From NCBI RefSeq assembly GCF_037042905.1, contig NC_087251.1, forward strand, positions 13,642,001-13,706,000: a DNA stretch of 64,000 nt, read 5' to 3'. Positions 18,501 through 59,205 of the stretch are shown here, one piece after another (positions within the stretch are counted from its first letter, which is position 1; every line of letters begins with the position of its first letter). The notes under the pieces were generated by a model, which made no database searches, was not told the DNA's origin, and saw only the letters and a program-made list of their open reading frames with translations. The position numbers and the translations under genes were made by a program. The DNA is from Lytechinus pictus (taxonomy: Eukaryota).

Positions 18501-21500
18501 ATTGTTGTCAAAATTCAACCTAAAATATTCACTTATGTATGGAACAGTAATTTTTCTTAATTGCCTCAATACAACACAAACACTTCTGCAAATTTCAATA
18601 AACCTATTTATTACAACTACTCTTAAAGTATATTTCAAAATATTTGAAGGATAGCATAGGTATGAATAGGTATGAAAAGTTAACTCAAATTGTTTAACAT
18701 AGGAATCAAAATAGACTGTCCAAAACAAATGTGAATCCTTTAAAATCTTTATCCAATGATATATACTGATCTCCTTCAAAAGAAGGTTTTCAAGGTAAAA
18801 CCTTAAAAGTGTTTTGACAGTTAGAAGCTTTAGAAGTACCATGATGAACAAAAGATAGGGTTGTTTTGTCACAACACCAGTCTTCTATCTTTGATTCCAG
18901 TATCTACATCAATTTATCAAGTCAGAACTAAGAACTATTATCAATCAGCAGGATAGTTCTCCTTCATTATAAGGCATTCGTTTCCATCTTCCAGCTACAT
19001 GTAGTTATATTTCATAGAACTTATCTGCTGATGAATCTCAGTCTAGGAAGAAAAATCATTGACATTTTATTAGCAAATATATGATCACCCCAACTAATGA
19101 AAGTATTTTTTTTCTTTTATTCACAACTGCACACTTCCCTTTCTCTCTTCTATATTTTAGAGAAATCAATATTTCTGACTCCCCCTCTATCTCTCTCTAC
19201 TTTCTCTCAACCACCATCTTGGCATTTTTGTAAAATTTCTGTAACACACATTTACACATAAAGTTGTATTTGAGCAAGTGATGTCAATTACTTCTCTAAA
19301 GCTCTCCATCTCTTTCTTGCTCTCTGGAATTCGCTACTAACACCATCTGTTTGAGCTTTCATAAATAAAACAAATAAAAAAAACACCCTTTGCATGTATA
19401 ATCTAAGAATTAAATACACTTTCCTAAATTTGATATCATATTTGCACAAGTATTTTCAAAGACTGGACTCAAAATGAGCTGCTCCAGCCGCTTCCTATCA
19501 TGACCACGAGCATCGGCTCTGCCAAATCTATCATGCTGTCCTTTGGGGAAGGGGGATACATGTACTACTAACAAGAAATGGATCCTAATTTCTTCTCTCA
19601 AAGGTGGCAAAGCCTTTGATGTCTGGGATCTGGAGTATCTATCAATCTGCGGACAGCTGTGCATATATGATGGTCTGTAACTACACCACAATTCTGAAGT
19701 ATGATGCTAATGATGTGATGCATTGGGGGAGATGGATATAACAGGCATCCAATCTACAGACCTTGCTCCTATGTTGGTTTATTCATTATGCATAGAATTG
19801 AAAGAATGATTTCAGTATTTTATTTGACAGCTATTTCCTTTTAATATCAAAATAAGTTATTTGAATTATGCAGTGCTTTTTCTCACAATTTAGGACCTAT
19901 AATGCTATTAAAAAAAAACCTCAGAGAGTCCGATAAAAAAAACAGCTTCAATGTAATTTAGCTTGCGTTTAATTAAAGATTATCAACAAAACTACATTGA
20001 TGGTATAGAAATTGTTGAGAACTAAGTAAAAAAGTACCCCTATTACTTTCAAATCTCAAGGCAAAGGATCTTCAGCCAGGGTTGGCACGTTTTAAACGGT
20101 GTGTTTTAAAACATGTTTTAAAACGCGTTTTAAAACACCCGTTTTTTTTACAAAAAAAACGTGTTTTAAAACACCTCATAGACTTGTGTGTTATAAATAT
20201 GCATGGATGTGATTTTACATGAATATATTTTTTATACTTTTTTTCTTAAGTGGTATATTATTTTCTTCTAACTAAATCTCTTTCTCACCACCACTCTTTT
20301 TCTCCTCTCTCTTTCCCCCCTTATTCTCCCCTTTTCCATTGCTTTGTCATGTTCCTTTCCTCCTGTTCAATTATGTAGATCAATCTATATATTCTCATTT
20401 TAACAAGCATTTGAGTGTTGTGCTCACTTTAAGACATGGAAAGAAACACTATCTAAAATAAGCTCAAATATGTAATAGTAGTACTTGAATGAAATGGAAG
20501 TGTTGCACAAGCACAATAATATTTTGCAAATAGACAGTATAACTGACATTGTAACCTTGAGGTACACACGAAAGTAGGTGAAACTTTGCGCTTTGTAAAG
20601 ATGAAGAAAAGTAGTTTAATTCAGAATAAGATAATCAGCTAGCAAACCTTAAAGGACAAGTCCACCCCAAGAAAAACCTATTATGCTGAAAATTTCATCA
20701 AAATCGAATGTAAAGTAATAAAGTGATGACATTTTAAAGTTTCGCTTAATTTCGCAAAACAGTTATATGCGCATCCTGGTTGGTATGCAAATGAGGGGAC
20801 TGATGACATCACTCACTATTTATTTTGTATGTCGTTATTTTCTCATTGTCATGTGAAATATATTTTTTTTCCTCCCTGAACATGAGTGGAACTACCATTG
20901 TTTTAACATTTTTTTGGTTCAGTTAAGTTGGTCATTATTATCAAATCTGTATAAATTGAAATATTTTATTGTTCAAACAATTAAAAGAACAAAAGAAATA
21001 GTGAGTGAGGGACATCATCAACTCCCTTATTTGCACATCACTGAGTTGTTATAAATGTTTTGTGAAAAATAAGCGAAACTTTAAAATGTCATAACTTTCT
21101 TATTTTACATCCGATTTCGATGAAATTTTCAGCATTATGCTTGTTTGAATTTTCTCTACTGATTCAAATCAGCATTTTTCTGGGGTGGATTTGACCTTTA
21201 ACCTAACAATCCCAGGGGACTGTAGTGGCCCCCTTAAAAATGTATATGATAAATCCATAAGAACAGCAGGGCCACGCCATATTGTTCAAGACTATTTTTT
21301 TGATACATGCATGGATATGCGGTTATGATATTACCATGGAGCTATCAACACATGATAGCTCCATGATATTACACAAGTAAAGCCAATGCAAATTTTTTGC
21401 CAACATTTTATCTGTATCAATATTTGTACTTTTTGTTAATGATTGGAAAATTATTGCAAATAATTTCCATTAAAAAACGATAAAAAAACCCAAAAGTAAC

Positions 21501-24500
21501 CACAAAAATGTACATAAGAAATTAAAAAAAAAAACAGTTAAAACAAACATTGAAAAAAACAATTTGATTAAAATTCCTCAATTAAAGAAATAAGCAGTTC
21601 AAGGGCCTAATATTTATAGATTTAAACCCAAACTTATATTTCATGCACTTGTGGGTACCCGGTAGGATGTGGAAGTCATTGTAGCTTGTCCAGTACTGTG
21701 TGCGCCTCACTAGCGACTGACTGGAATACTACCCAGGGAGTGGAGGATGTGCATACATTGTGTGCGGGAATGACCGATTGAATCCGATGACTGGGTTAAT
21801 AATATATCTGTAAAGCGCTTAGACACGTCTTTCCAATGTATTAAGCGCTATATAAAAGCGGACTATTATTATCATTATTATTACTTAAAATTTGTATAAT
21901 TGATACAAATGAAATAAAGCATATTGAGTAAATGAAATTAAGCTTTGAAAGCCTATAGTCTATAGATTATGTTGTTTTCTTACATAGTGCAACTTCTTCT
22001 CACCCCTATAGATTGATAAGACTTAAAAAAACCTGAGACTACATGTATGAGGAATAAACTTATAAAATGTCAACTTAATTTTTTGGCATTCAATTTCCTT
22101 TATTTAGTAATTTTGGGAAAAATATGAACTTTTCTGTTGAAAATTCAGTAACAAAAATTGTAGTCATCTCTTAATACTCCAAAAATGTAATTAAAACATC
22201 AAGAGCTTAAATCATATTGTATTAAGTGTATAATTTAATTGATTTACAGGAAAATTACATCGTTCGTTGGAAAAAAAACGTTTTAAAACGATTTAAAACG
22301 TTTTAAAACAATAAAAAACGTTTTATTTGTTTTTTTTAATAAAAAACGTTTTTTATTACAACCCTGTCTTCAGCTAACAGGTTCATTTCTTGGCAATCAC
22401 ACAACTCCTTTATTAGCACTCATTATGTAATTGAAAAACTAAATTGAAACCTGCAACCCCCAGCCAATGATAGAACGGAAAAAAACAACCCTGTCTCCAA
22501 ACAAATAAAATGAGGATGTTTTTAGCCTGAGGATAAATTTTCACTTCATATAAAAGACTTCAAATATCAAATTTCAGCTCTCAAATTGATATTGGGGTAA
22601 CATTTGCTTGCCACATTCACGTTTGAAATCTGGAGTTAGAGGAAACGTTCAATTTGGAACAGATTGTAAAAATAGGGTCTGCAATTATGGCCAAACCAAC
22701 CTAACTTCCCCCTACCCATGTGTTATTTCCTTTGTTAACTGACAAGGAAAGAAATGTCAAGTGACATAGATATTATTGTTATTTAGTCCAATTCATAGTT
22801 ATAGTGTCAGATGACATAGAATATTTTATTTAGTGAATATTACCACATAAGGTGTGACAGCTTAGTTGATAGATATTGGGTAGTTATCTGTTGACTTAGG
22901 TTTTGGTAAGAGAATCTTTTTATTATTTCAGCTTCCCCAGAGAGGGCTGAATACCATACAGTATATGTTTTCTCATTTATATTGACATTTTTTCCTTGTT
23001 TAGTTATATTTAGATGATTAAATAATTTCAATCTAAAAATATCTTTCTGTAATTTCACTCTTGTGATTTGTTTTCAAAAGCATCTTGTTCCAAGTCCCAA
23101 AAGGCAAACTTAAAATGTGAAGTTACATGGAAATTCAACAAATACCCCTAACATGCCCAAAGCTCATTGACCCTAAATGACCTTTGACCTTGTTCATGTG
23201 ACCTGAAACTCAAGCAGGATGTTTTGTAATACTTCATTACCCTTATGTGTAAGTTTAAAGAACTAGGTCCATATACGTTATATAAGTTATATAAGTTATG
23301 CTAACATTTCAAAAACTTAACCTTATACCCCTTTCATAAACCCAATTATGCGGCTAATAGCAGCATAATTTGGTCATAAAATAGGAGGAGGACCAGAGTT
23401 ATCCGCATTATTTTGATGCTGCAATTATCCGCATAATAGCGGCATCGGGACCAGATTTTGACTTTATGAACGCATTTCCAAAGTAATGCGGATAATTGCC
23501 ATGGTGCGGTCACCCTTTTCCAACACAACCACATCGGAGGGGGTGTGTGCGGTTGCCATGACGATTATCCGCCTTTTTCAGGACGGGCGCTCGTAAAAAT
23601 AGTGCGGATTATTTTCGGAGTTTGTGAACGCAATTTTTATTGAATTATCTGCATTACTCTTAGGCGGCTAATTGGAGGATGGGTTTATGAAAGGGGTATA
23701 AGGTTGAGATTTGATATTGACGCCGCCGCCGTCGGAAAAGCGGCACCTATAGTCTCGCTCTACTATGTAGGCAAGACAAAAACACCCCTTTTCAACAGTT
23801 TAATGACATCTGTTTCAGAATGGAATTCATTTCTGCCATAACACCATTTGTTATTCATTAAAAATGTTGTTCCGAATTAAACACAATCTATTGCTTCATT
23901 TATTTCACCTTTCTGCCTTTGCAAGAAAAAAAAAACATGGTAAAGCATTGAATTTCCTTCTTTTTTTGAGAGAGAGAGAGGAACAAATCACATAGCGGAA
24001 CATTTGTTTCCTATTTTTTTCTAAAACTGGCACACTCCAAGAATTGATGATAGGTGAACATGAGGACATGGTTAAGACAACGGGTCTTTGGGGAATGAAT
24101 GTATTCTGATAGCACAGATCCTGTGACCTTATCCTACAGATATCTCTGGGGAGAACCCGCTGACTTGGGCTTCTGATAAACACTTGTTTACATTATCAGG
24201 ATACTTCAACAGTGGAATCAAACTATGTAAAGGCAAACTGATAGCACCAAGAGAATCAAATTTACATTTTTGTAAAATCATCATAAGCCAAACTAAAACA
24301 CTGTAAATACATAAAAGGAAAAGATGTACAATACTTGGAAACGAAAGGCTGATCGCAATACAATTTAGGAATGACTTCACATCAAGGGTAGATAGCTAGG
24401 CCTACACCTGGGTTGAGACACACATCTGTATGAAGTATGGTTAATGCACAGACCACCCTAAGCAATATCCTTTTGAACATCATGGAATCAGCTGATTGAG

Positions 24501-27500
24501 AGTGTCCTGGAAATAAGTTTTTTCCCCCTTCTTTCTTTGGTAAGTATAAATTGAGGATTGAAACAAAAATCATTTATATCCTGAGGCATTATTCAATACT
24601 ATTAAATATCAGGATCCAAATATATTAGAGGATGTGGTGGCAAATTGCTACACACACTTTTGGAGAGGGGGCTTGTAAAAAAAAGGCATATTTTAATGAG
24701 GTGCTAGAATGAGATTTTTATCTCAGATAAACTTTCTGGTATATATGGGTTGTGTGAACGAACTCCCCCAAATAAATATGGATTTCATAAATAGCTGTGG
24801 TAGGAAGGGGGACATAGGCAGACAGACAACAACCTTCAGAGCGTTGCTCCTGCCAAACTTTGCTTTCCGGGAGAGAAGCAAGATGACAGGACATGAGTGA
24901 CTCAGGTGACTCCAAGGGGAACTGGGAAGGGTTAGATGAGGAAAGGGAGAGGGGGGAATAAGAAGAGGAAGGGGTAAGAAACAAGAAAGGGTAGGGAGAG
25001 AGATGGAAGATGAGATGATGGGATAGATTGGAAACCCAACTGATATGAAGAAGTGCCACAGGTTACATTTAGGGAAATACTGGCTAAAGATTGTGATGGG
25101 TTTGGGCATATTGGTTTGGGGGAAACACAAGAAGATAGGAGAGATAAGATAGAGATAAAAGAAAGGATGTCTGAGATGAAGCTGACCTGAGAGAGGGATG
25201 TGAGAAGCAGAGATGCCAGATTGAAAGTGTTTGAAGTTCACTCGCAGAGGGCAATATAGAAGATCATCAATATAGATCTCAGAATGAAAGGAGTGGGGGA
25301 GGAAATGCATGTATCTACGTCCCCCAAAGAATATAATTACCTCCTCACAAATATAAGTGATAAAAACACTAAAATAGGCAATAGACTGGTCAAGGCAGAA
25401 TAAAATTCACACATGGGAGTTGAGAAAACCACAAACGTATCAAAGAGAAGGGCATTTTTTTTCCAACGAGGAGAAACCTCACATGACATGCAAGCAAATT
25501 ACACTTAAGTCTGTCTGCCTTTCAAACATACAAATGCAAATGTAATTGCTTCCCAAACTCCCTATCTTAAAACATCATGTGTGGGCAAAACATTAAAAGC
25601 AAATAAATAGTGCATTGATCTTCTTTCCTTTCATGTCTTTATGTATCATCTTTTTTCTAACATAATACTGGATGCGCCAAACAAATTAAGCCTTCATTAA
25701 TCCAATAATTAGGCAATGCCAGAGCTCATTATACTAATTTTCTAACACATTCGGATGTTGGCAAATCTTCAATTATTTTCTTTCCTTTTCCACATTCTGC
25801 CAGGGGCTACTTTGTTCATATAATACAATGTGACATCAACAAATTTTAACTACTTTGAATGAGAAGGCCATTGATAAAATATTTAAACAAAATGTAGTTC
25901 TTCATGAACAACATGCATTCATTGAAAATAAATATGTCTTATTTCATTCTGGCTCAGTTGATTGTTTTTACACTGTGAAGTAAAAAAACAAAAAATAATG
26001 TACATTATTTTCTATGCTCCCCAGGTCTGCCTAAAGTAAGTTTATTGCTTTGGACCAAAGAACTTTTAGACTTGTTGCATATTCCGGTCTAAAAATTGCT
26101 TCTTAACATTGAAATTGTTTTAATATATCTTTTAAGTCTGCGTGAGGGTATAACGTCCTGTAGTTGGAAACATGTCAAACATATAATGACAGAATGACGA
26201 GCAATCTTGACATCTCTCAACCTTACTTAGGCTGGAAGGAAACCATCAATAATGCCCAAAATGTAAGGTGGAAATGAGCCGTCGTTAGCACAGGCCGGAA
26301 ACATGGCTACCGTGCAATACCTTTTATCACTGACAGCACCAATTCCCCCAAAATATGGTTGTGTTATAATTTTGGGACATCCTTTCAATAAATGAAAACA
26401 ATGCCCAGCAAAACTAGTATTAATTTCATTCATCAAATGTACTGCTGCAAAAAAATTAAAAATAAAATAGAGGAAAAGCAAACGCCAGATAAAAGGGTTT
26501 TCTCAAATAGTTGCATGAAAGAATGTTGTATAAATATGAAATGATTACTATCTTGTGCCTGATATAACCAAGTGTTGGCAAACAGTCACACAGCCAATTG
26601 TGGAAAGCCGACATGATATCACATTAATACACATTTTTCATTGACTCAATTGAGTCTCATTTTCGTAAAAATATACACTTGGCCAACAGGAGAGTCCATA
26701 AACTGAACAAGTAAAATTATAACCAAGCCTATGAATCCCGGGCCAATTTATGATTACTTATTACTAAGAAATTCATAATTCTATAATAGTGTGTTGAAAT
26801 GGGAGGTCTGCAAACTTAGAAGAAAATTTCTGAAACAAAATAATGAAGATCTGTCATACTTGACCTGCAGCAGATTATTCTGTTTGCAAACTCCTGAAAC
26901 CTCCATGCTGATTTAGCATATTAGTTTTTTCCTCACAAATTTAGGTCAATTATAAAAAATTACAAATGTTTACCCGTTCAAGAATTTATATCTTGTTATC
27001 CCCAGACTGCAGCATCAGCAAACACTGAGGTCAAGACACTAAGAAGCAGCATCATCTAAAGTTCTGTAGATATTTCTATGATTATAATCATACATGTATG
27101 AAGAGCCCAGTTCCAAAAAGTTCTGAAATCATACGTTTCGCGTTTGCACTGAATCTATGGAAAGGTTTTGTGCATTTCATAATGGTTGCTTTCCAAATTG
27201 AAGTTCCACTCAAAATAATTATTAAAAAAATAGTAATTAATCTTAATTACAATTGGCTGCAGAACCTATTGGAACTGAGCTCATCATATTCATGAATGCA
27301 TGTCATTGGCAAAGTACCAAAAGAAATTTGTATGCAAGCTAAGCTTGATGCATGTTCACAATAACAATACTCATCAGGCTTTTCTTGTTTCCATAGAGAC
27401 AACTACAAACAATCTTACCTCTCCTGCTCCATACTTGATGACAGCATTGATGAAGGACATACAGGCTGTCTTGAAGTGAACATCATCTCGGTACTTCCCT

Positions 27501-30500
27501 GAACTTCTGTCAAGATCATTGATTAACCTCTGTAAATGAGAAATAAATTGGTTTAAAGATCATCAGTTCAGGATATGACATTATTTTTGCTAAGTTTAAG
27601 TTTGGTAGTTTGAAATGACCCTAGTTGTATCTTCAGGGCCCATCATCTTAAACCTTTGATAACAAAGTCTAAGTCAATTTAATTCATTGAGCAAATTAAT
27701 AAACAAAAATTACAAAATCATTATACCTGATACAATATAAAACTTAAAATACATAACAAAATAACACTTTATAAATCCCAACTACAATGGATTTGAATAA
27801 AGAAAGAAAATAAAGAAAAAAAAACCTATGTTTGTGATTCTTGCTTGAGATAATTGCTTGAACGCACCCAAAGAAGCTTGATATAGGAAGATGACTGATC
27901 TTCATCGTCTTCCTGTCTTATGCCAGTGTGGTTTGGAGCATCCCTTATCAACAACAGGTGCCTTGTGATCATCGTCATAGCAAACCACTCCTACCCAATG
28001 AATGGGGAGCAGTGCGGAGCCATGATGGCTGGGCCTCCCCCAAGTATCCCTTCCCCTGATGTGTGAACCACCCTGTCCCCATGAACCAACTTAATACTGC
28101 TACACAACAGAAATCAGGATATAACTGAAGTTTCCAATGGCGATGATGGAACCAGTGAGGGGGGGGGGGCACTCAAATTACATATTTATATGGGTGTGCC
28201 TCACAAAACCCTGAAATGGGGGTCTAATGAACTGATTACAAGGGTAAAATGTCTTGGGAACTCAATATGTACCTTGTGGTGTGAAAAACAGGTTCTACGG
28301 AACAGGATCGCGGTACTGTAGGTACAGCGCACGTTAGCTGTGCATAGAGCTGCTAGTGGATACTTATGGAGCTCTCACATGCGGTGCTAGTGCTCTTTTT
28401 GGCAGGGCAGGGGAAATGAGATGTTTTGTAACAGGGGTCTTGCAAGTGGGGCGGGGCGGCTTCTGAACAGAACTTTTGTCATTCCGAGTATCTAGATCTT
28501 GCCAGGAGGTTTTTATCAAATCAATGTTTTAAAAATCTGATATATCATACTTTGATATTCCAAATTTATTGGAGTGGGGGGTAATTTTCCTGTGGCTGGG
28601 GTCAATTTGTATATGATTTTTTGTTAAGGAGCAATATATGACAAAAAGGTGAGTAATTACAATTCTCTTCGTCATCAAATATGAATGACATTAGAAATGA
28701 ATACCGTGTTTAGGACATATCTTCTTAAATACAATGGATGTTTATAAAATAAGTATGTCTTTATATTGTAAGATTCCCACTGTTAATCTAAAGTGACATG
28801 ATCTTCTTCGAATCACTTACATTGTATCACATGCATTTAAGGATGTGTTTCTACTCATTTTGATAATTTAAAACAAATGAAGTAGATTATCATAATGAAC
28901 TCTTCAATGGGGCAAGAAATTCTGTGTTACGTCCATTTTCACTGGCCCATAGGAATTACTTTAGTATGACACACCATGGACATGGAAAAACATGTGAAAC
29001 CACAATTATGACTCAACTCCTTCAGATGTTCAAGGAACTGGGGAAGATCATCCAGGAGAGTTGGGGGAGAATGGATGTAAAGGAGACAAAAAATACGAAA
29101 ATTAGAGAAGTGAAAAGAGGGGAGCTATGGACTGGAAGAGATAGGAGTATTGGATGGGAGCTAGGATTATAAAATACAACTCACACACTAAATGGCAAGT
29201 CATTGATATTACTTTCCTAAAAAAATATCTAAACATTTGGTATTATTTAAATACACTGAATCACACAAATGTATAGGTACATATTGTTGAAAAATAAAAA
29301 GGTAATTTTTCTCAATTACATGCACATGCAAGCCTAGCATTTTGCTATGACCTTAGAAAAAAAGTTTGGCAACCATTCCCTTTAGATCCAATCTGATCGT
29401 TGCCCCAAACCCCAACCCCACCCTCAAGTATATTGTATAACAGGTGACTGGGATTAACCAAATCAAAGGAGAGGGTGAGAGAGAGAGAATAAGATCTTGG
29501 TAGATATCACAACATAATGAGTAGTCATTGACATCTGTTATCTTGTGACTACAATATTTATAAATGGAAGTACTAACTGGGCCATGACTGATGATGAAGT
29601 CCAATCTGGTCCACAGGTCATGAGGAATGACCCTGAAGATATGAAGGATGTAAAAAGATCGATGTTGCTGGCAATATCAATATCACTAAAAAGGGGCCCT
29701 TTTCAGCCTTCAAGGCTTTGGTAGACATTCAATATGAATAATATTGCACAATCATTTAACATTCTCTAACAAAAGTGTGATGACCAAAATCATTCTACAC
29801 CGATTCATTGAATTTCATTAAATGTAAAAATTCAATTGGAATATTGATCTGATTAAGTGCGTTCTCTTGGTTATTTCTCATGATAAAAGACCTCAAGAAA
29901 AGTCAAATGAGTTTGAAACCTCTTCTTTCACAATTTGCAATATCACAGATGTTATAATAATTAATGGCAACTATTATGCAACAAATGGTGGTCATTTGTA
30001 TCAGATAAGATCCACCTCTGTCAGAAATGTACCACATGGGATGACATCTTGATCACTTTACTCCGTTTCCTCCTAATTAATGAAGCGTCTATACCATATA
30101 GGGTTACTCATAAAACCTCAGTTTCCTACAAACCTCAAACTCTGCAGGACAATGTTTTTTTATAAAAACAAAACATTTGGTATTCCTCATTAAGTAGGCT
30201 TTGGCAGACATGAAAAGATAATAAGGAAATGACAGTTTTCAGATCAATCCCCGTTTCCATCCCTTTTTAATGTTATTAGCCAGATGCTGTTCATTTCTTT
30301 AAATCTTATTTGTTAGCAAAATAATTAGTTTTCTCACCAAACAGGGGTTAGAAAATATGAAATGATAAAGGAACTACTTAATTACTTCAGATGAATCTAT
30401 ATTTCCCCATTCAGACTTCATAGACTTTCCTTCTACCCATAAAAGATGTCTTATTCTTTTTGTCTGATTAATATTTTCTAACAACAAAACAATTGGCATT

Positions 30501-33500
30501 CTTCATGAAGTACACTTATATCAAATAACAATTCAATGATCTACACTCCAAAGATAAATCTAACTTCCTTAATGTTATGATTATTAGAGCTATGGTTAAC
30601 ATAAATAACAGCTCACAAAGTGAATAGGTGATTAGCATGAGTAGACACAGAAAAGTATTGAGTAACATGAACATGTCATAATGTGGAGCGTTGTGGCCCA
30701 GTGGATTAGTCTTCGGACTTTGAAACAGAGGGTCGTGGGTTCGAATCCCAGCCATGGCATAATTTTCTTCGGCAAGAAATTTATCCACATTGTGCTGCAC
30801 TCGACCCAGGTGAGATGAATGGGTACCTTGCAGGAATTTATTCCTTGAAATGCCAACATGCTGTAAAAGACTGCGGGGCTAAAGCCAGGGTAATAATATC
30901 CAATTAAGTGTATAGGGAAGCATTTGGCAGTGATATGCGCTATATAAGCATTTTGGTATACATATATATTTTTTTAATACAAATTTTCAGCATTACTCCT
31001 ATGTGTTTAAGATCGCATGCTTGATCTGTAATGAAAATCATAAATCATAAATCTTAAACACATAGAAGTAATGCCGAAAATTTGTTTAATAAAAATTATA
31101 ATTTACTCCTATTAAAGCCTCTTTATTTACATTTTGGTATTATTATAATATAATCATGATATATATATATCCTTTATAATATGATAGGCTGGGAAGGGTT
31201 ATTATAAAGGTATCATAATATGCAATGCTGTGTTTAAGCAATTTTCTAAAGGATGAAATAGAACCTAATACACATGAAATGAAAGATGTTTACTTATTTT
31301 TATTTTTTGTACATGGATAGCAATTGGCAATCAATGAAAGATTCTGCCCCCCCTCCCCCTAAAAAATAATGGGGGAGGGTGGGCAGGATGGTAAGCATTG
31401 AGTAGTCTGCAGGGACAGACCATTGGTTTTCGCAATTCCCATAGCTCATAATGCAGAGTCTGAATTAGTGAGTCTAGATTTACTATGTACTGTGGCTGGC
31501 TCTTATTTGACACAGAGAGTTTGGCGTCTAGTCTTCACTCTAGACATGGCAGTGTCGTATATGAGTCTGCACTTGCAGACTATTAAGCATTAAGTTACAA
31601 GTTTGGTTTACTTTCATTTTCAAATCAAGTAATTCTAAAAATCTTTCTGCGTCATATCTTAATCTTAAATCTTAAATTCTTCTTGCATGATTTACATTTA
31701 CAAAATAACCATGGACCTATTACAAAATAACGTTGCATTCCCAGTGAAAACAGATGCTTAACCTCTTTGGGTGGATGAGTTTCTACCATGACATCAATCA
31801 ACACCTGGGATTCAGACATCTGCCGCTTTTTATTTCTGTCTCTAAAATAGTTCTACACTATTCAATTTTGACAATATCTGGGAAAAGCAGTAATTTTGAT
31901 AAAAACAAACTGACTGTGCTGGAAAACTTGGCAAAGGAGTACCTTAAATGTCAAAATATCAGTACATAAATGAGTTTCGGATGCACATGGTCTGTAATGT
32001 CAAGTGATTTCAAAATTTGGACCCAAAATAGACTTTCTCTACGGTAGCTTTGACACCCTGTGGGAGTTCAGAGTCGGTAATTATCCACCAAAGTCATTAA
32101 TGATTCATCCCTGAAGAAGCGTTCACACTGCCGGTGTGTTTTGTTTCTGGTGACAGCTGAAACAAACCTGCTTTTATACCTCTATGAGGCAGGGGTAAAA
32201 CGGAATGGTTTGACAAATGAAAGGGGGCATCCACATTGCGAGTATTACCAACCATGTGAGGATGTTGGCAGGAATAAATTCTAGAGTAATTCCTAATTAA
32301 GATCTGCAATAATATAATAATAATATAGCATTTATGAGGGGCCAATTATCTAGTTGCTATTACCGCGGCTTTAGCACCAGCTGCTAAAGGCGCTTGGTGC
32401 ATTTAAGGAATTAATCCTGCCGGGTACCCTTTCATCTCACCTGGGTTGAGTGCAGCACAATGTGAGTACATTTCTTTCTGAAGGAAAACACATCATAGCT
32501 GGGATTTGAACCCACATCTCTCAGATTAAGAGACAAGAGTTGTAACCACTTGACCACATAAATATGAAACAATTGTTTGGTGCATATCATATCATGCAGA
32601 CAAACTCCTCAAGTTTTAAAATGCAAATGTTGATATTCTCAAATCCTGACCTACATGTAAATGTATTACTAGTACCTGCTCGAGAAGAAGACAAACATTT
32701 TAAAGAAAAACTGTTTTCATCCCAGAATATACTTTTTCTTTTACGGCTATCTTCCCTTCATCAATGGTAAAATCAACTCCATAGCTCCCTTTATACTGTA
32801 GCCCCTTTTCCTAAGAAATCTTGCAAAAGCCCTATCAAAGAGGATGCAAGTCTCAAAGTCACAAGGTAGCAATCATATGGGTTATGGGTCAATTTCTTCA
32901 AAGTAAATTTCCCCAGTGCCAATAACACACCTCATTGAGGACCCATCATCTCCCTTCGGTTTCTTAATCAGACCTCGTTTCTTGCGAGTCATCTCGGTAC
33001 AGAAAGAAACAGGTGACCTGTTCATGGTTGATTAATTAATTTCTTCTCCTGTTCAAGGGCCATTTACACTTCATAATGCCAAATTTTGTGATGCTTACAA
33101 ATACAATGATGGTAGTTATTTTTTTCAGAACTTAAACATAGATTCATTTTATTATGGTAGTAAAAATTGTTCACACCCTTGTAACATGTTAGAAGGCAGA
33201 TATCTAGGAAAAACCAAAGGCCGCACTAAGGTCCATGGAAAAACTGACCTTGGGATGGTGCTGTAACACTTGAATAAGGACAAAAACTGCCCCCTCTTCT
33301 TCCAATATCTCAATGTGGTGAAATTGCACCCACTTTATATTTTCTGATGCTGAAGATTTCTTTTGGTGTTTTAATTGAATTTCTCGTTTTTGAGCCCCAT
33401 GAGATGGTCGTCTTTGGCAATTGTTGCCCTTATTCCCCCCACAAGACATTACTTTACACAGGCATTGATATTTGACCTTAAATTTCATCACATTGAAGGT

Positions 33501-47152: not shown

Positions 47153-50100
47153 CTGTAAAAATGATAGAAAGAGAGGGAACAATCATTAAATTTGGTAAAT
47201 CTCCATATAACTAAGTATGACATTTATATTATATAAGAAGTTTTTTTACACAATTCAGATGATTGTGGTAACCTTTTTTCTAATTGGAGTCGTACTCAAG
47301 ACTTTCTGAAAAGCATGTGTTTAATCACAGATTCTTATGATAAGAAAAGAGGGAGGGGGCATGATTCTGAATATTTTCGAAAAAATGAGACAACAAAAAA
47401 GTTTGGACAAAATTTTTTTGTTTTTCTTATGTTTTGTACAATGTATGTGTAACTATCCAGATCCATATATCAACCGTCCCTACTGTAATCTGGCATTGAA
47501 GATGGGATGACACCCTTATGTCTAATGATCCAAGCATTGATAGTGAAGAGAAGGATGCATGCACGCTCTAGACATTAACCACTCTGAAACCTAAATATCA
47601 AACCACTCCGGGTCCATTTAATAGCAAAATGGTTTATCCTTCAGAGAAAAAAACCCTGAAACCTATCACTTCTCATTATGTGAGATTCAACATGATGCTT
47701 TCATAGATTTTACATATCAGCTGCATTGTTTAAGAACTATGCATTAGGATGCATTGAGTAATTCATTACACAAACAAAATAACAACAGAAAGAAAAACAA
47801 ACCCACAATAATGAAAGACTGGTAAAAGTGCCTGGCCATCTATTCTTGAAATGAATTAATTCTGATAACTTCACTCCAAAGTTAATGGATTTAAAATAAA
47901 TCTCGATTGGCTATGGTTGGTTATCAAATTATGCTTGGTTTAGATTTAAACCTTAAAGATTTTGAATATAAATCATTTGAGATTTTGAGTAAAACTTTCA
48001 GGATTCAAATTTATGTCGAATCCTTGTAATTCAGGGAGTGCATTTTCATGTATGTTTATCTGTAAATCTCCATAATGGATTAGAAAGAAAATAATTATTC
48101 CTGATTTCTGTTACAATTATCCTGTGGTGTGGATAATATTCATTTTGTCCCATAACAAATGGATTGATGTTCACTTGGCATTAATCGGTATTAAAGCTGC
48201 ATATCATGTTCTACAAAGCAACTTTTTATTTGATTACAGTTTGGGAAAGTGCTCTTCACAAGTTTGAATACAGGCTGACCCAATGATTGCAATCCCTGGT
48301 ACAATATCAATTTATAAATTTCTACACTTGCCATCACATACAGGCCTAATGATTTCATAAATAAACTTCTCACTCACTCACTTGGCAAAATTCTATTGAC
48401 AATTATTTCCTATATTTCAATAAAAGCAGTCAGCTCTCTGGTAATAATAGCTTCAGTTTTTTACTGTGAATTGTTTGTTGCCTGGATCAAAGTATAGGTG
48501 GTTGGCCATCAACAATCCCACAAGATCAAACATCAAAGTCAAATCAATATGACTTTTATGGACAAACAACAATAACAATACATGATACAGCCATATGAGT
48601 GCAGAGCAATACAACATCTTATCGCCATAAAAACTCACTAAAAAATCAATTTTAGTGTCTGGTGTCAGGACGACAAATGGACTGGAAATAATTGCTTGGA
48701 CAATTATCTGGGTTTTTTTTCAGCCAGTACAAAGGGTTTGAAGTCACTTTTCTCATATGGCAAAGTGCTTCATAGCATGTTCAGACTAGAGAAATTCCAT
48801 GGAACAAACACCTGTATGAAATATCATCATAAAAAACAGCATAAAGCAAAGATGGACCAATAAGATACATCGGACAAGACTGAAACATTATTGGCCAACA
48901 AGTGTGTCTTGGAAAGCATTTTTAAAGGGACTCCGACTGTCTAACAACTACTCAGTCAATGCTCACTTTCAAGATGATCTTTACATGAAGTACATGTAGC
49001 TTTCGGATTTGGGCAGAAATAAAAAATTTTCATCAAAAGCAACGCTAAAACATGCACTTTACAATGGAATCTTTTTGTGAATAAATTCTTCTCACCACAA
49101 TAGACAGAGCATGGATCCAAGGATAAATGGACAAAGTAATGTAATAAATGAACATAAGGATACTATTCTTTTAACAATCAATCACTGTTACCTGAACACA
49201 GGTATATACATGGAGCTAGAGGATGTAGGTACCCCATGGTCAAAGTCAAATAAAAATGGGTTTCGTTTGGCTCTATCCACCTGGAATCCTCAAACCAAAT
49301 CAGAATGTAATGAAAAAAGAATTGCTGTTTTATTAAAAACCTTGTTTTCACAACACGAGCTATGAGGGAGTGCTTTAGAGTATAGTCTGGACAACACCCA
49401 CTCTGCAATTGAATACATTGTTCTTGAAATACTACTGACTCTTAATTGAGGGAATAAATTACAATTCTCATAATGATCAGCGAAACTCATTGGCAATACA
49501 CAAGGAATTTGGCATGTTTCTATTATGATCGAAGGCTTCTTTTCATTTACTCTTATAAATTAAAATAAGAATGCTCTACATCTCTGAAAAAACACAAACC
49601 GTTTTTTGTCATGATTCACTACTACGATTCATCATTATTTTTGTGTAGGCCCTACAAAACGAACTTCACATTGCTCCCCTAATTATTTTAAAACATGTTA
49701 AAGTTTCTTTCAGTTTGGCGAACTTTGACGACCTTCATGTATCTGAAACCTGGCCTTCAGGCCGATCAGAATCTAAACTTTCAGAGTGTTGTATCCCCCT
49801 CTATGGTGAATACTTCAAGAAATGACCCGGGCGAGACCACTTATTATAGCTGACAACTCCAATTTGTGTACAATAGAACATTGCTAGTGGCGAATCTGCC
49901 AGGCACACAATAAAACGACACTTATCAAATCTAATAAACACATTCTTGGGAAAGGCACATAACTTCACAATCCCAGAATATTAGGTTTCGTGTCTGAAAT
50001 CATGTGTCATGGGGTCATGTCCCATCCAGTGAATGAATAAATCAAGTCCACAAAAAGCCTGGATTAGGCTTCAATTTCGCTGGCAATACTGATATATTTT

Positions 50101-50407
50101 CTATTTGTTCAAGATAAAATCGCAGGATGGTTTGTATTCATGAAATTCCATGGAAGGATTCATCCATGACAGATATCAATACCTAGAGAATAGTTTATAT
50201 CATCAATCATATTTGAACAAGAGTAGGACCGAGTGGCATACATGTTAGACAATATGTCACAGTTCATTCCACTACCACACTTGTATTCCCAAACAAACCA
50301 TAGTTGCATCCCTTTCTCACTCCTTTATTTGTAAGGTCAAATAGTGGATAAATAAAAATAAATAAATAAGGTTGGGAGTAATCAAAATGCTGTCTATATT
50401 GTTATAC

Positions 50408-50610
50408 CGAGGTTGTTTTACCTGACTGCTAAGAAAGCACGAATGCCTGTGAGCAAGCAACCAGTGGACCAACGGCTTAAGGTCCTCTCCGAGGGACCTG
50501 GTAATGAGGATAAATGCCTTACCAAAGGGCACTAGCGCACCACTTGGGAATCAAACCCGGGTCACCGGAATCCGAAACCCCCGCTCTACCGACTGAGCTA
50601 TCGCGCCTCC
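50408..50610 (-). mobile_element. tRNA-derived SINE, second family
   Basis: The minus strand reads GGAGGCGCGATAGCTCAGTCGGTAGAGC (A box), GGGTTTGATTCCC (B box), then the body CCCTTTGGTAAGGCATTT...GTCCCTCGGAGAGGACCTTAAGCCGTTGGTCC, reminiscent of the Deu/Nin-type SINE central domain (inference). Confidence 0.82.
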
Positions 50611-50637
50611 CCAAAATTGCATTAGCCTTCTACCAAT

Positions 50638-50660
50638 CATGGATCTTAGTAGGATCCATG
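50638..50660. mobile_element. 23-bp palindromic insert with 7-bp TSD (P-like footprint)
   Basis: TACCAAT|CATGGATCTTAGTAGGATCCATG|TACCAAT. Confidence 0.7.
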
Positions 50661-53600
50661 TACCAATGATGAAACACTGCATATCACTGACAGTAAATAA
50701 AAAGGTGCCATTGCTGGATATACAATAAAAAATCAAGAACTTTCAAGGAAGAAACAATAACGGTAAAGTAAACGTCAATAATATTGAATTTCAAATACTG
50801 CATACTAATTTTGCACTTTATTTCCAAAGGTATTTGACTGAATCAAAGTCATTCGGTATTGACTGTGATTCACCCCCAAATCAGATAACAAAATGCATTG
50901 TATGCAAAAACCTTCCACATTCAAGCACATTCAAAGCATCAAAATAATGTAGGCCTTTACATGTATACTCATCAGCTTCTGTTCATTAACTCAACCAACA
51001 ACCAAATATTTTGCAAATTTGCACAGTATTTTCCATAATTTGGAATTATGAAAGCTTATCCTGAATATGAGTCTGTTCCTTTATTATTATTTTTTTTTTT
51101 TAATTATTATTTTTTAAATAGATTGGCCTTGCAGAGGTATTACATGTGATATGGTTAGTCTAGGATTTGGAATTGCATGTTTAAATGAAGCTCATATGCT
51201 AAAATTAGATTGAATAACAAAATAACATAATTAGTTTTTAAACAAGAGGTTAATGGGCATGAATTGGAGGATTTAGAAAAATAATTTGTCAGATACAAGA
51301 CATTGAATTAACTCCAATACAAATAATTGAATCATGATAAACGTGCAGAGAAAGTTTCTTAATAAATTTACTGATTCAATTTTCATGTACTGCTGTCAAT
51401 TCAAATCAAATCATATTCAATAGCAGTGCACTCCACTGTGCCTAATAACCGCAATCATCCAGCTGCGGTGTAAAATGAAATCCTTTTCAATACCAGGTTC
51501 AAGTCCAATATACTTCACACCTCAGTGTTTTTATGAAAACTCTCCTGACGTCAGACACAAAGAATGCAACACCAGAGAAGGTGGGATTGTTCTGTTTATT
51601 CGTAACATTCATGACACATACCACCGCATATTACTTCACCACTACATTTATGAGCTTGGGTAAATTTTGCCTGTCATTTACAACTTGCAAATACGGAAGC
51701 AAAAAGTTTCAGTACGTTCTGGGTATTTTCTTTGAAAATAATGGTTTGTTCGTTGCGCATGAAGAGAATGATTGTTTGGCTGTATTATTGACACAAATAC
51801 ACTACTTTAAAACATGTGCAAGCGGATATCAAATTTTTAATGGACTTCCAGCTGATATAATTTTATGACTTTTAACAAAAAAAAAATGTATTTAAATCAA
51901 TTCATTGGAGCAAATGTAACATTTTCAAGAGATCAAGAATTCTATAAAAAAATTTACTCTCGTAATGCTATGACAATTTTCTCTTTTAATATAAAAACCC
52001 TACCACTGCATGATGCAGGATGCAGTGATCACTTTGAGCACTAACCTATAAAATTTACCTCAATATTTTGTCTTCCTATTTTCATAAATTTCCAAAGGAA
52101 TACATGTACCTTTCAAAGATGTATTCCGTGGAATGACAGAGCAGTTCTGGTCTTAACCGCACTTTTTAATCAGCCGTTTCATTTTACACGTCTACATTTC
52201 CAACGATTTCCTTTTCAGCCAAAAAGGTGTTACAATCAATATTACCACATCCTCAATACTTCTGTCACTTGATATTCATTTCATAAACCAAATTATACAC
52301 ATTGGATATTCACATAAGCTGGGAGGTTGTAAACTTTTGAGTATAGAGAAAAAACCTTCAATTTGATATCTATCTTTGTGGGATAATAAGAGTGACATCT
52401 GAGCCCAATTACACAAAACAAACTGATTAATCTGGATGGATTTATTTTGAATTTATAAAATTGTTATAGTCATGTTTTTATTATTTAAAATGTACAGGTA
52501 CAAAGTAGGTAACAGGTCAACCTTCACTAAATTATGGATCCCTTAACACTACCAAAGGCTTTAAACTGAAAATGGGATGGAGTTTCCACAAGAAATTAAG
52601 ATAATCCCAAAAGCTCTCCCAAAAGCATTACTACTTTCCATTGAAATCCATTATTATCCCAAGTGGGAGATTCCATGTGTGGCTTCACAAGAGTCTTCAG
52701 GCCTTTGCATGATTTAGAATTTTCTCTTTAAGTTCGCTGGGATTGAATTCTTCATATTAGAGATTATTTTCAAGTGTGTTGGTTAATTCCAGGCCTAGGG
52801 TGACAAGACCAGGATCTAGAACTAATCTCTTTCCTTGACTTGTCTCCTCACTAAGACATATTTTCATTAGCCCCAAGTACTTAGCTCAATTTGCAGTAAT
52901 GACTAAAAAAATGAACTTCAACCCTTAAAATTTTCGAGCATTGAGTCTGATACCTACATGTACAAGCTTTAAGTTTTTGATAATGATATTGAAAATAGAA
53001 CAATGGGGAGATCCAAAAATATTTCTTCTTTTCTTCAATGGGGGGGGGGGGGGGTAACACTTTGAATCTGGTTTTAAGCAAGATAGCTCACAACATTTAG
53101 AGCTGGATGTAAAGAGTGTGATAGGTGTTCTAACTAACCCAAGCAGAGAAAACACATACATGAAGGAAAGAGGAAGGGGGGAGGGGGCTTTACAAACTAT
53201 GTTCTTGTGATTATTAACCAAGTTTGGGGCTCAGAAAGAATGTCCTTCCTTGATTACTGTGAGAAGGAAATTACCAGGCCCTCTAGAGGGCTGTAGGTCT
53301 GGGATTAATCGTCAGAGGCCAGAGCTTTCTCAAAATCTTATGATGGAAGAATCTAGCACTTTAATCTGACAGTTCTATCGTCATCAGGGGCAAGGACTGG
53401 ACCAAAGGTATCCATCATGACGTTGTTATTTTCAATTTTACCTCAATATTCAATCAGTAGAGTATATGGTTTGATATTTCTATTTCTATCTAATAGTAAA
53501 AAATATTGCCTAACTTAGTGAACTCAGAGGACTAAAAACATCCATAATTTTATCCTATTATATATCAAGCATCTTTGCAGACCAAATGATATCACGTTTG

Positions 53601-54635
53601 AATATCATTTGTCTGTCCAAAAGCAAAGCAAAGCAAAGAAAAAAAAATCATTAAATTAACCCTACCCATAAAAAGCAAATAAGACAACCAAAAGTTTTCT
53701 CCTAAGTTTATAGAAAACAGGATTGTATGCATTAATACACTACTGGGTTGTTTATATTATAATATCAATGATTATTCACCCAAAATGCCATTGCTATTAC
53801 CAATACATTAATCATAAAATATATAAAATCCTGCCTGACTGAAAATAATTGTTTACATAAAATCTGACAATACGATTTACTACATTGGGGTAGAGATTCC
53901 AAGAGCAAGATAGGCAAAGCCAGGGTACTGATTCATAAGAGATGGGACATCATTAACAGCAAATTCCAGTGTGGATTGTAAGGAGAAGATGAGCAGATTG
54001 ATTGAGAAGATGATGGTCTCCAACTAAAAACATAAATTTGCCTGGAGGGATGTTGAGATATGGTTTATGATGAGGAATTCATCTTTGCAATGCAGACTGA
54101 ATGCTGGAAGATAAACAACTGTAAATAGATGGGCAAGTAAAGGTGGGAGGCATGAGATGTGGGGGGGTTGACATGGGGGGTATGGAGTGGGAAAGAAAGA
54201 AGATGACGATGATGCATTCAGGAGAAATGCAAGGGTTTTGAGATAGGGATGAACTATAGGAGGAAGGGTCCGGTGGAAGAGAAGGGGAAATGAAGGAGGT
54301 AATGGACAGATAAATAAAATGCCAGAGAGGCAATATTGTACAACGCCTACTTAGCTTGTTGTACGCGAGTAAATGGGAGACAGAATGTCAAACATTCGTA
54401 CCGTTGCACAAACGACGTACCATAAAAATGTACCATAGAATGTGCCACATTCTAAATGCCCAAATAATGCTGCTTCATATATCATCATAACTTTCAACTA
54501 TTGAAACGATTGACAATCATTGACAAGACTATCCCTCCATACAGGCAAGCTGCATATATCTCATCTTCAATCATAAAGAAGATGGCAGAGGGTATCACAC
54601 CAGCATCTTGAATACCCAGGTGAGTGCGCCTTTAA

Positions 54636-55229
54636 AGGGGAATCCAGCCTTGGCCATAAAATGTTGTGTTGGGAAGGAGAAAAATAAATTAAACAGAATG
54701 GCGAAAGTTTGAAAGAAATCGGACAAGCAATAAGAAAGTTATAGCTGCTTTTAAATTGAGATCACTAATAGTATGTAGATTTCAAATTGGCAACTGGGTA
54801 AGTAAATTATGACAAGGGGCAAGGACAACTTTCCCATAGGCCATGTACTTTATTATCAGGGATTTGTGGTTTTCTCCTAAGTACCCATTCCCCTGGGGCA
54901 GTAATCTAAATATAATCCAGGTAGTATATTGTTTTATGTCCTCATGAAAGAAAAATATATTTTGAAATAAAACTTTTAGGAAAAATGACATTTTAGCCAT
55001 AATATGTATTGGAGTACATGGAAGAGTAGTCCTTGCCTTACATCACTATGACATCCCACATGTGGCCAATTTGAAGTCTCCATGGGTATAGTGATTACCA
55101 ATATTTACAACTTTTAAAAAATCATAACTTTCTTGTTGTTTGTCCAATATTGTTCAAACTTTCACCTATCAACTTGACTGATTTTTCTTTTTCTTATAAA
55201 AACAATTTTTATTTGGGTTGGATTCCCCT
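54636..55229. mobile_element. TTAA-target MITE with AGG...CCT ends (Kolobok/T2-like)
   Basis: TTAA|AGGGGAATCCA ... TGGATTCCCCT|TTAA, with subterminal inverted GAAAGTTTGAA...AAGAAAGTTAT / ATAACTTTCTT...TTCAAACTTTC. Confidence 0.88.
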
Positions 55230-55698
55230 TTAAGATGAGGTGATAAAGCTGACATACTGCATCCCCCTCTCCAGAATAAATGGAGCTGTCAGTTTGGGAT
55301 GTTTGTGTCTGGTCGACACTATCATTGATGTTTCCAGAGAATGATTTGCGCTTTACGCCATTCAGTTCTTATCTTTTGATTCATGTGCCCATCTAAACAA
55401 GCTTGAACTATTGGGCATACCAGAAAGTAATTAGGAAGGTACACAAAGATAAACATAAAAATATAGAAGAAAGACATTCCTGATATATGCACATGTCTTG
55501 ATATGATAAATGGACCGCTTGATACACTTGGGGTATATGCCTACTCTCGCATGAGGGGTGTTTCATGAAGATTTAATTTTGACTAAAAATCTCAATAAAA
55601 TTTCCAGTTGCGAGTGGTTAAAAAAATATATATTTTCATATTGGTCAGATCATGCTATATATTGTCCCTCCTCCTTATAAACTTGTAGTGGGTTTCCA

Positions 55699-55724
55699 CA
55701 TGGACCTATTACAATAGGTCCATG
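55699..55724. mobile_element. 26-bp palindromic insert with near-perfect 7-bp TSD (P-like footprint)
   Basis: GTTTCCA|CATGGACCTATT-AC-AATAGGTCCATG|GTTTCTA. Confidence 0.65.
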
Positions 55725-56895
55725 GTTTCTACGCATGGTTCACTTTGAAGCCGAGATGTTCTTCATACATTGAAATGATGCCAGTACTTTACAGATCTAC
55801 TATTATCCGTCAAATTATTCTGGCATGCCTGTACATGATATATGCACTTTCTAAACTCTCTGACTGAGGAGCATCCCAGTAAGAATTTTCCAAACTCAAT
55901 TGCTGGGTATACTATATCGACTGTTGTATCTTTTGGGTAGCCAGACACCTGGGTGGAGAATGGCAAAGTGTGAATGATGCATTGCCTTAGGATGCTAGGC
56001 TGTGGTGGGATTCAAACACAAGAGGATCTCATTAAAAGATGAGATTCAGAAAATCTCTACACCATGTGCAAATTTCTTAACCAATTTTCAAGGTGAATTT
56101 CATCTGAACAGTCTGCGCTCAGCCAGGCATCTCTGCATTTGTTTTTCATCCATCAAATCCTTGGTGGAAGCTGGATGTGACTTGTTTGTTCCTTGCCAAC
56201 AGATTTATTTCATCCTTTGATCCAAGAATATCTCTCCTCATCAAAAGTGACAAAAGTCAAGGGTTTCGAGATGCCCTATAAAAAGTTCATTGTGTCAAGT
56301 AAAGAAATATATACCAAGGATCTAGCTGCCTATTTTTGTATCTTAGCTTTTTAATCAAAATCATTCAAAGTTCATTCAGACATGTTTATATTTTCTTCTT
56401 CAGAAAGCTGTGGAGTATTCAAAATGATTAGGTGAGAACATTCTGGCTCTAACAGTCAATACCTGGAATTTCATCTGTTCTCAAGGAATAGATGACAAGG
56501 GACCAGATTGAGAAGCTTTGTCAAGAGTTCAAAAACAAGAGGATGAATAAAGAGGATGTAAACGGAGAAGGCAGAATTGGATTATATGCTTTTCAATCAA
56601 TTCATTCATGGGACGCACCCTGCAGGGATTTAATAAAATCAAATGTGGGGATAGCACGCCAGCAGGTATACTTAACCGATCATGTGATTGATTATGACGT
56701 CAGGTCGGACGCATCATTCGGTCTTGATCCAATCGAAGCGATTCAACAACAATGAAATCGCTCAGGATTTGTCTGTGAAGAGAATGTACTCTCCAAGAAA
56801 TCCCTGGTCCAAACATCTTGACTACTGATTGTATGTTATCAAATGGACAGCTACAGATATGATAAATTAAATTGCCCTTCGCCCTGGATATAAAT

Positions 56896-57294
56896 CCCGG
56901 GGGGGGGGGGGTAGTCAAATATATTGCTGTACACACGCGTGACCAAGAAATTTCCAAACACCCCCTAAACAAGTTTTTTTCTGTGTGCAAAATAACCCCC
57001 TAAACAATTTTTTCGCGGGCTTTATTTACACATTTTGGCCCCTAAACAAGATGTCGCCAAAATATGACCTCGGGGAAAAAGCTTGGAAAAAACATACCCT
57101 AAATATGTTTGACCCTGCGATTGACCATTGACCAGTCTTTAAAAACCACCCTTTTTCTTAAAAATCAGTGTTTTTGATACCCTTAACGAGTCCACATGCG
57201 GACTGCGTCCAAAACTGAAACACACCCCTTTAAACGTGTTTTTTTGGTCACGCGTGTGTACAGCAATATATTTGACTGCCCCCCCCCCCCCGGG
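56896..57294. mobile_element. 399-bp MITE with CCCG(G)n termini and long TIRs
   Basis: CCCG(G)n-TAGTCAAATATATTGCTGTACACACGCGTGACCAA / TTGGTCACGCGTGTGTACAGCAATATATTTGACTG-(C)nCGGG; ATAAAT on both flanks. Confidence 0.9.
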
Positions 57295-58127
57295 ATAAAT
57301 CCATTCATGAATTAATGAGGGCACATTGAAATTTCAAAGCAATTCATAAAATATCTTAATCTCATGGAACTGCTAACCCTTGCAGTCAATGACGTAAAAA
57401 GGACATAAATGAAAAGAAAATATTGTACTTTTGAAGAAACATACAACCCTGGCAGCATGGTCAAATATAGAGGCTGAACACTATTTGAGATCTGCATGAA
57501 GAGAAAAGTTGACACGAATCCCAACTGAAAAACAATCTTGCCCTACTTTTTTTCATTTCAAGAATAAACACAAGACAAAATCATAAAAGGCAAATAAGTC
57601 CTGAGTAACTGCATCTTACGAGTGATTACTTTATACAATATTCAACATTCTCTTAGATCTTGAAATTGATCAGTGAAATTTTGAACACATGTTTTAGACT
57701 TGGCAACAAAGTGAAGTTGTTGAGCACTTCCTAATCATACATCTGTTCTCTATTCAACTGATTTCCTCAACAGACTAGCAACAAACCCCTGTCCTTTCTC
57801 CCTCCAACTTCTGGCATCAACAGCTTGTCAGCTTCTTAACCAAACTCGAGTTAACAAAATAACATGTATCGGCAGCTCTTTGGAAACAATTTCATAGTTT
57901 TCTCTCAATAATGTGACTAAGAAAATCAGGTTTAATTTAAAAGGAAAATATACCATGACACATGGTTGTTTGTAACGAAGGTAGAAAATGTATCGTTAGG
58001 TTGTTTTACAATGAATACAACATTGCTAACGAAAAAGTCAAGGGGGTGCATTCAAGCTAATTACCAGCTCGAGAATCCTTGATGTGAATCCCAATTCTTT
58101 TAACTCAAGCTCACCCAATAGATCTAG

Positions 58128-58574
58128 ACACCGTTCTCATTACACTTTCTAAAACGAGTTTACTAGAAACCGGTTCAGGAAACCAGTTTGGAAGATCGCT
58201 TTGCTAGCATTCCCATTTGATCACACGAAAGTGGTTTTCAACATCACTTCACATAAAGCAAATTTTGTTGCTATGGAAATGCTCTCAGTGGGGTGACATG
58301 TTTCGTGTGAAATTCGAAACCGCAGCGTAGGCATTCTACATCTGTTGTGTGGAGTAGCGCACTCAAAATGTGCGAAGATTGCTTTTCGAAGAACGGTTGT
58401 GTCCTCACTTACGCTAAAACCAGTTTAACGAGGCAAAGCGATCTTGAAAACTACATCGCAAGGTGGTTTTATGAACTGGTTTGGAAGATCGCTTCGACCA
58501 TTCTCATTACATGTTCAACTAGATTTAGACTAGTTTCCACTAAACTATTTTTAGGAAGGTAGTGAGAACGGTGT
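58128..58574. mobile_element. MITE (Harbinger-like ends)
   Basis: ACACCGTTCTCATTAC / GTAGTGAGAACGGTGT, with imperfect pairing over ~45 bp. Confidence 0.8.
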
Positions 58575-58578
58575 GCTA

Positions 58579-59205
58579 GGTTGTGTTCAATGTTGATTTT
58601 CAAATTTAAACGGCAACATGAATCATGATTGAAAACTCAAATCCAAAACACAGAACACAAACACGATCAGCGGTGCACCCGTGTGTAGAAAATATAAAGC
58701 CGTTTATATCATGGAGCTATTACTGTTAGATATCGTTCCTTCGCCAGAGGGAAGCGATAACAAAGGATTAACAGAGGAATTGGAAGAAGGATCTCCTTCT
58801 GTAATAGCTCTGTTTATATGTTGAATGTCTTTATTTTTCCCACTTTCGTTAACGCAACTTTAGTGCTTAGTTTTACCATCACAAGAAAGGTCAGTTCTGG
58901 CACCTGTTTGTGAAGGCTTCCATTGCGAGAGCAAATTTAAAGACGTTTCAAAATGCAATTGTGTTCAATGTCGCATTTGCAATGCTCAAGGTTGTAAATT
59001 TGAGCTGATCGCGTATAAAAATGCATCTTTTTCAAAATCTTAATTTTCCTCCGAATAGGATTTGAAAGACGTTAATTTTTACGACAGGGAATAGTGGACA
59101 TTGAACACACCCTTTGTTTCTCATTATATCTTCGTTTTGTAATCATGTTTTCAATCATGATCCATGTTGCCGTTTAAATTTTGAAACCGACATGGAACAC
59201 ACCCC
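58579..59205. mobile_element. MITE with ~60-bp TIRs (GG(T/G)TGTGTTC ends, Harbinger-like)
   Basis: GGTTGTGTTCAATG...AAATTTAAACGGCAACATGAATCATGATTGAAAAC / GTTTTCAATCATGATCCATGTTGCCGTTTAAATTT...CATGGAACACACCCC. Confidence 0.82.
58710..58812. mobile_element. 103-bp mini-element with CATGGAGCTATTAC TIR and 7-bp TSD (P-like)
   Basis: TTTATAT|CATGGAGCTATTAC ... GTAATAGCTC(--)TG|TTTATAT; nested in the 58579-59205 MITE. Confidence 0.7.

Follow-up and report, generated by a model that had tools for sequence, protein, structure and literature searches.

Short inserts between 7-bp repeats in the genome of Lytechinus pictus are most likely excision scars of P-superfamily transposons

The window analyzed here is a stretch of 64,000 nucleotides of the Lytechinus pictus genome. 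Exons of a formin gene (with the FH2 domain), which we take to be DAAM-like, lie on the minus strand between 285 and 19706. The non-coding DNA upstream of those exons contains five short inserts, all beginning CATGGA and each placed between two copies of a 7-bp sequence. The original prediction had located these inserts and their 7-mers, and five out of five are found where it placed them, with one mismatch in the pair at 55699. It also held each 7-mer to be specific to its site; this does not apply to the insert at 21335, whose flanks recur at other loci. The features of the region are listed below. The ends are assigned to families A, B and C, and the word scar anticipates the interpretation argued later.

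21335..21365, no strand assigned: probable 31-bp scar with a family-B-type end variant, passenger in an amplified host repeat
31710..31724, plus strand: probable one-armed family-A scar, 15 bp inserted
33215..33237, minus strand: uncertain candidate for a sixth scar, exact 7-mers enclosing a 9-base arm and other letters
50638..50660, minus strand: probable 23-bp family-C scar, arms of 17 and 8 bases with 2 shared letters
55699..55724, plus strand: probable family-A scar of 26 bp that recurs elsewhere, its arms (16 and 12 bases) sharing 2 letters
58579..59204, no strand assigned: unrelated host miniature inverted-repeat element, the insertion site of the element at 58710
58710..58812, plus strand: probable 103-bp family-B remnant, a 16-base left arm and 89 bases of the right end of the parent

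The window also contains TACATGTA, with 18 occurrences across 1-64000 (0-20 per 16 kb across 194 kb), and at 23312-23712 an abundant inverted-repeat element, for which contigs of relatives show joints with few letters left after removal.

All five inserts are real and lie far above chance. Hairpins of the form CATGG..CCATG, up to 40 bp in length and placed between 7-bp repeats, number three in the window, compared with a mean of 0.007 and a maximum of 1 in 300 dinucleotide shuffles; the enrichment over shuffled sequence that had been foreseen is plainly present. Similarly, CATGGANCT with an exact downstream 7-mer no more than 120 bp away gives 6 strand counts in the window and 0.03 in shuffles. 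The local density of one insert per 13 kb does not hold as a general rate, and while there are thousands per genome, five in 64 kb overstates their frequency. A scan of 1,093,432 background bases, which were fetched around other matches and so are not a random sample, gave 12 inserts, with a mean of 0.4 in 15 shuffles. By the same scan the window has 5 inserts where 0.7 are expected. It is therefore ~7 times denser than background (P = 8e-4), and about 10 windows as dense as this one would be expected per genome. Scaled to the genome of 811.7 Mb, the background rate corresponds to ~8,900 inserts (4,600-15,600).

How widespread are the ends themselves? Genome counts were made with exact patterns, using the reversed patterns as control. 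The family A 15-mer has 454 matches and the family B 14-mer 177, with none in either control; the family C pattern has 345 (control 23), and lengthened family B ends have 377 (control 1). Two-armed hairpins with 10-base arms and a length of up to 40 bp account for 3,990 strand matches, with none in the control. This corresponds to ~2,200 loci, based on a hand count of 56 loci among the first 100 matches listed. Longer hairpins have an exact 7-bp duplication in 14 of 19 cases. At least three variants of the terminal inverted repeat had been proposed. The third had been misread; the correct reading is CATGGATCCTACTA, and the other is a junction product. Further end variants such as CATGGACCTACTAC and CATGGAGCTAACAC are present among the hairpin matches listed (G000:C1), and suggest that there are other families beyond A, B and C. 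A metagenome scan gave four matches, all within microbial or phage genes, which we put down to chance.

Larger elements with these terminal inverted repeats, as had been anticipated, are found for families A and B with 7-bp duplications, but with no intact P transposase inside. Both kinds of parent are non-coding. Those of family A are ~835 bp long with 28-31-bp repeats and 86-92% identity (40 of 342 candidates scored); in family B the length is ~1,040 bp, the repeats are 22 bp and the identity is 83-88% (40 of 466 candidates scored). The parent ends are CA..TG terminal inverted repeats, as in the P superfamily. Of 18 loci examined, 15 have both ends matched, and there the duplication is exactly 7 bp in 15/15 and 8 bp in 0/15. 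Parents L211 and L173 have nested insertions. No transposase remnant was found inside 20 parent copies, and no family C parent at the 30 loci read of 345 matches. Scars and parents have the same target preference of T at position 2 and A at position 6 (0.83 in 69 scars and 0.84 in 22 parents), with G or C at the edges, and positions 3 and 5 favouring T and A.

The inserts differ in their histories. That at 21335 occurs with identical flanks at five of the 30 loci read (L343, L346, L355, L361 and L363). The host repeat around it is at least 830 bp long, with identity of 97-98% at three loci and 86-88% at two. Because the same insert and flanks recur within this repeat we count the insert as a passenger; judged from these copies, it is to be read as one old event in many copies and not as an independent one. 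Its first 17 bases are present in 17 of the first 100 matches listed for lengthened B ends, of which five were checked. The arm at 31710 continues to base 17 by way of two A's common to the right target copy. Contigs of organism A from two runs have at most 15 and at most 13 letters missing here, compared with 22 for an empty site, and thus this scar is apparently present in organism A. Contigs from two runs also span 55699 with gaps of 9 and 8 letters, and this scar is present in the same organism. The organism A contigs are ~6-8% diverged; since the scar at 55699 and apparently that at 31710 are kept across this distance, they are old. No case of one haplotype having a full parent where another has a scar was seen among the organism A contigs listed, in which 55699 and 31710 are spanned. 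The 26-mer at 55699 is found at five other sites, each with a different 7-mer. The 17 bases of the arm at 50638 are common to three loci, which diverge at base 18. A sixth scar at 33215-33237 is possible and uncertain.

At 58710 the left arm is joined through two shared letters to a right part, which lacks two bases at its tip and whose identity with parental right ends is 91-95% across 10 distinct copies. It is likely to be an aborted gap repair. The surrounding inverted-repeat element provides the empty sites with a single copy of the 7-mer that had been predicted. Eight of 14 sister copies have the single 7-mer, three have small indels and three are unaligned; none contains the insert. Elsewhere in the genome several scars lie tens of bases apart at each of L140, L135, L191, L242 and L358, and this clustering suggests local hopping or reinsertion. 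At L224 a 33-bp scar is split by a 1.15-kb element within its TTTAA stretch.

The predicted arm-length limit is well defined in family B, where the arms halt at 17 bases. Of 60 short ends 57 have 17 bases or fewer, compared with a parent repeat of 22 bp. There are 17, 11, 12 and 17 ends at 14, 15, 16 and 17 bases respectively, two at 18, none at 19-21 and one at 22; the set still includes one parent and a few ends from other families. It comes from 79 of the first 100 matches listed, with duplicates and parent-like ends removed. The 21 left out comprise eight known or likely parent ends, six seen elsewhere and seven not fetched. All the arm samples are conditioned on search words of at least 14, 15 or 17 bases. 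In family A, 49 of 66 arms fall at 15-17 bases, 16 at 18-20 and none at 21-28, and there is one diverged parent end. This sample was drawn from 81 of the first 100 matches listed, the other 19 being 12 already seen and seven parent ends. Twelve of the 16 ends at 18-20 are ambiguous, as the other arm or the target gives the same letters, and in the family A data a limit of 17 is not distinguishable from one of 18-19. A limit of 18-19 was set aside; family B has the same junction classes at 17.

Some family B ends are lengthened by three or four bases, and 50 were read among the first 100 of the 377 matches. In the four-base variant 29 short ends are distributed as 11, 3, 3, 3 and 9 at 17 through 21 bases, with none at 22-25, while none of the 10 ends of the three-base variant exceeds 20. 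The lengthened and standard B ends are significantly different (Fisher p 0.0007). The parents of the lengthened variants go on with the same internal bases, and the limits of 17, 20 and 21 all coincide with the same internal base. The base after the limit is also A, and therefore junction bias does not account for the stop. With 11 four-base-variant ends at 17, two cut positions may be mixed in this set. Thus the 17-nt stagger originally proposed stands for the standard family B ends, where donor cleavage with a stagger of ~17 nt may be read indirectly from the scar arms, but not for the lengthened ends, where the limit is 20-21. The inner cut is likely to be placed by the internal end sequence and not counted from the tip, given that tails reach 20 or 21 bases at ends with three or four extra bases.

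In the accessible part of a review of P transposase (PMC7776569) the helix-turn-helix of the strand-transfer complex is described as binding the repeat over its inner half, with bases –14 to –18 disordered. Such disordered bases would permit extra bases to be looped out and the cut to be set from inside. The placement of the two cuts by P transposase is not settled in that account, and what is added here is that cut depth shifts with end length within one family. It is quite possible, if short of probable, that the inner nick of P-type transposases is positioned from the inside of the end, so that the 17-nt stagger follows the length of the end (17, 20 or 21), and that the enzyme of these families belongs to a P clade that lacks THAP and has a RAG1-like zinc finger at its N-terminus. 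We found no report of natural P-type footprints or of their cut register in the literature searched, most subscription papers and Repbase lying outside that search.

The junctions of 69 closed scars have 1-2 shared letters in 40 cases and are blunt in four; 25 are scored as insertions, a class that also takes in later substitutions and end variants. In several of the insertion class the letters are visibly copied from the arms. These classes are those of Table 1 in the available text on Drosophila P(wa) products (PMC2895639), and by analogy we infer that polymerase theta may have acted at these junctions.

A plausible course of events is then as follows. The transposase would nick one strand at the tip of the element and the other ~17 bases inside, so that each flank would keep a single-stranded tail together with its 7-bp target copy. 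The tails would be trimmed and then joined, either over one or two shared letters, as blunt ends or after a short templated fill, in a manner like the polymerase-theta-type end joining at P breaks in the fly. Occasionally DNA copied from the sister would rebuild part of the element before joining, as may have happened at 58710. Some scars would later have multiplied as passengers of other repeats, as at 21335.

Among the features of the P superfamily are a P-type DDE transposase (RNase H with a GTP-binding insertion) encoded between the ends, an N-terminal THAP domain and a requirement for GTP. P-type transposases are present in the genome (41 and 25 matches); no intact element with these ends and a duplication around a transposase was found in roughly 40 transposase regions read, which were covered in sets of 20, of 20 new regions or extensions, and of 11. 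A decayed 5.3-kb P element (L112:1197-6525, G000:C3) has a 7-bp duplication that is exact; its end of 23 bp is related to that of family B, about 10 of 13 leading bases matching. At a second locus (L391:572-9990, G000:C2) a P-type transposase remnant (E 1e-33) of the clade whose N-terminus is RAG1-like lies between two collinear pieces, a family-A-like end with 75% identity over 190 bp and an interior piece with 80% over 80 bp. One end is seen, and the arrangement could also be due to nesting. At the level of sequence, this one locus is suggestive of a link between these ends and P transposase. An intron-containing P-type transposase of the clade nearest to this remnant (L113:5059-6948) has a CxxC-rich N-terminus and 44 related matches in the genome; it gives no THAP match, and its match to RAG1_imp_bd lies below the cut-off (E 0.0015). 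We conclude that these families are likely to belong to the P superfamily.

Three candidates for further ends were rejected. Upstream of the L113 gene, a match of 10 bases is without a partner end, homology with L390 extends beyond the match upstream of the L393 gene, and a family-A-like piece near L394 scores 36 compared with a control median of 30 and maximum of 56. P-type transposases with open frames, 817 and 959 aa long, were observed at L100:3778-6228 and at L104/L105 without detectable ends, and are possibly domesticated.

We are confident, short of certainty, that the inserts are the tips of larger non-coding elements elsewhere in the genome, and most likely P-superfamily donor-site excision scars. 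This was the central proposal of the original prediction, and it is supported by the enrichment, the larger parents, the arm limit and the empty sites. Could the same scars have been left by a transposase that does not belong to the P superfamily but likewise makes a long-staggered cut? The tie between these ends and P transposase depends on a single remnant locus. Yet P is matched in the CA..TG ends, in the 7-bp duplication and in the limit, which is exactly 17, and we consider such an enzyme improbable. The 17-nt stagger sets P apart in the review as far as accessible (PMC7776569), and Galileo too makes 7-bp duplications according to the available text (PMC4168063).

Alternatively, paired inverted repeats might lose their loop by replication slippage or hairpin processing, an internal deletion independent of transposase. 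Such a process would fit with the 1-2 letters often shared at junctions, and with parents shortened by internal deletion to 231 and 874 bp. However, slippage predicts arms extending to 22 (family B) or 28 (family A), where the gaps at 19-21 and 21-28 described above are empty, and the family B distribution has P = 5e-17 under a flat 14-22 model. We regard this as very improbable. There is a slighter chance still that the short units are themselves mobile mini-elements, as identical 17-, 19-, 26- and 27-mers at 8, 7, 5 and 4 sites with differing 7-mers might imply. But every recurrent form is a join over shared letters, copies with identical flanks have travelled with their host repeat, and units of <34 bp would be too short for two 17-base ends. 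Moreover, while the ~835- and ~1,040-bp parents have the uniform length and two complete ends of a MITE, 69 scars fall into 22 length classes and many are one-armed.

P excision scars as a phenomenon are already known from the laboratory. The closest comparison is with the donor-site end-joining products of Drosophila P(wa) (Chan, Yu and McVey 2010, PMC2895639). In the accessible portion of that study both target copies are retained with up to 17 bases per end; shared letters, blunt joins and templated fill are found, together with incomplete gap repair followed by end joining, all as here. In contrast, the target there is 8 bp and not 7, the events are laboratory ones at one site where here there are thousands of old natural sites, and here the limit moves to 20-21 in lengthened ends. 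Galileo, another member of the P superfamily, shares the 7-bp duplication and a palindromic preference (GTANTAC) in the text available (PMC4168063), but has long inverted repeats compared with 22-31 bp here, and the T and A preference at positions 3 and 5 is the reverse of that of Galileo. Zebrafish Pdre2 / THAP9, from what can be consulted of PMC10983969, has P-type ends and short terminal repeats in a deuterostome-type setting like that here, but its repeats are 13 bp and its duplication 8 bp, and no natural scars are described in that text.

If this interpretation is true, the genome is a natural cleavage assay for P-type transposases. The natural end variants predict that where bases 12-16 are lengthened the stagger should grow by an equal amount. 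The scars are probably too short for library masking, and their counts exceed the number of events because some ride in other repeats. Nevertheless, thousands of scars would record both the outcomes of germline end joining and past jumps.
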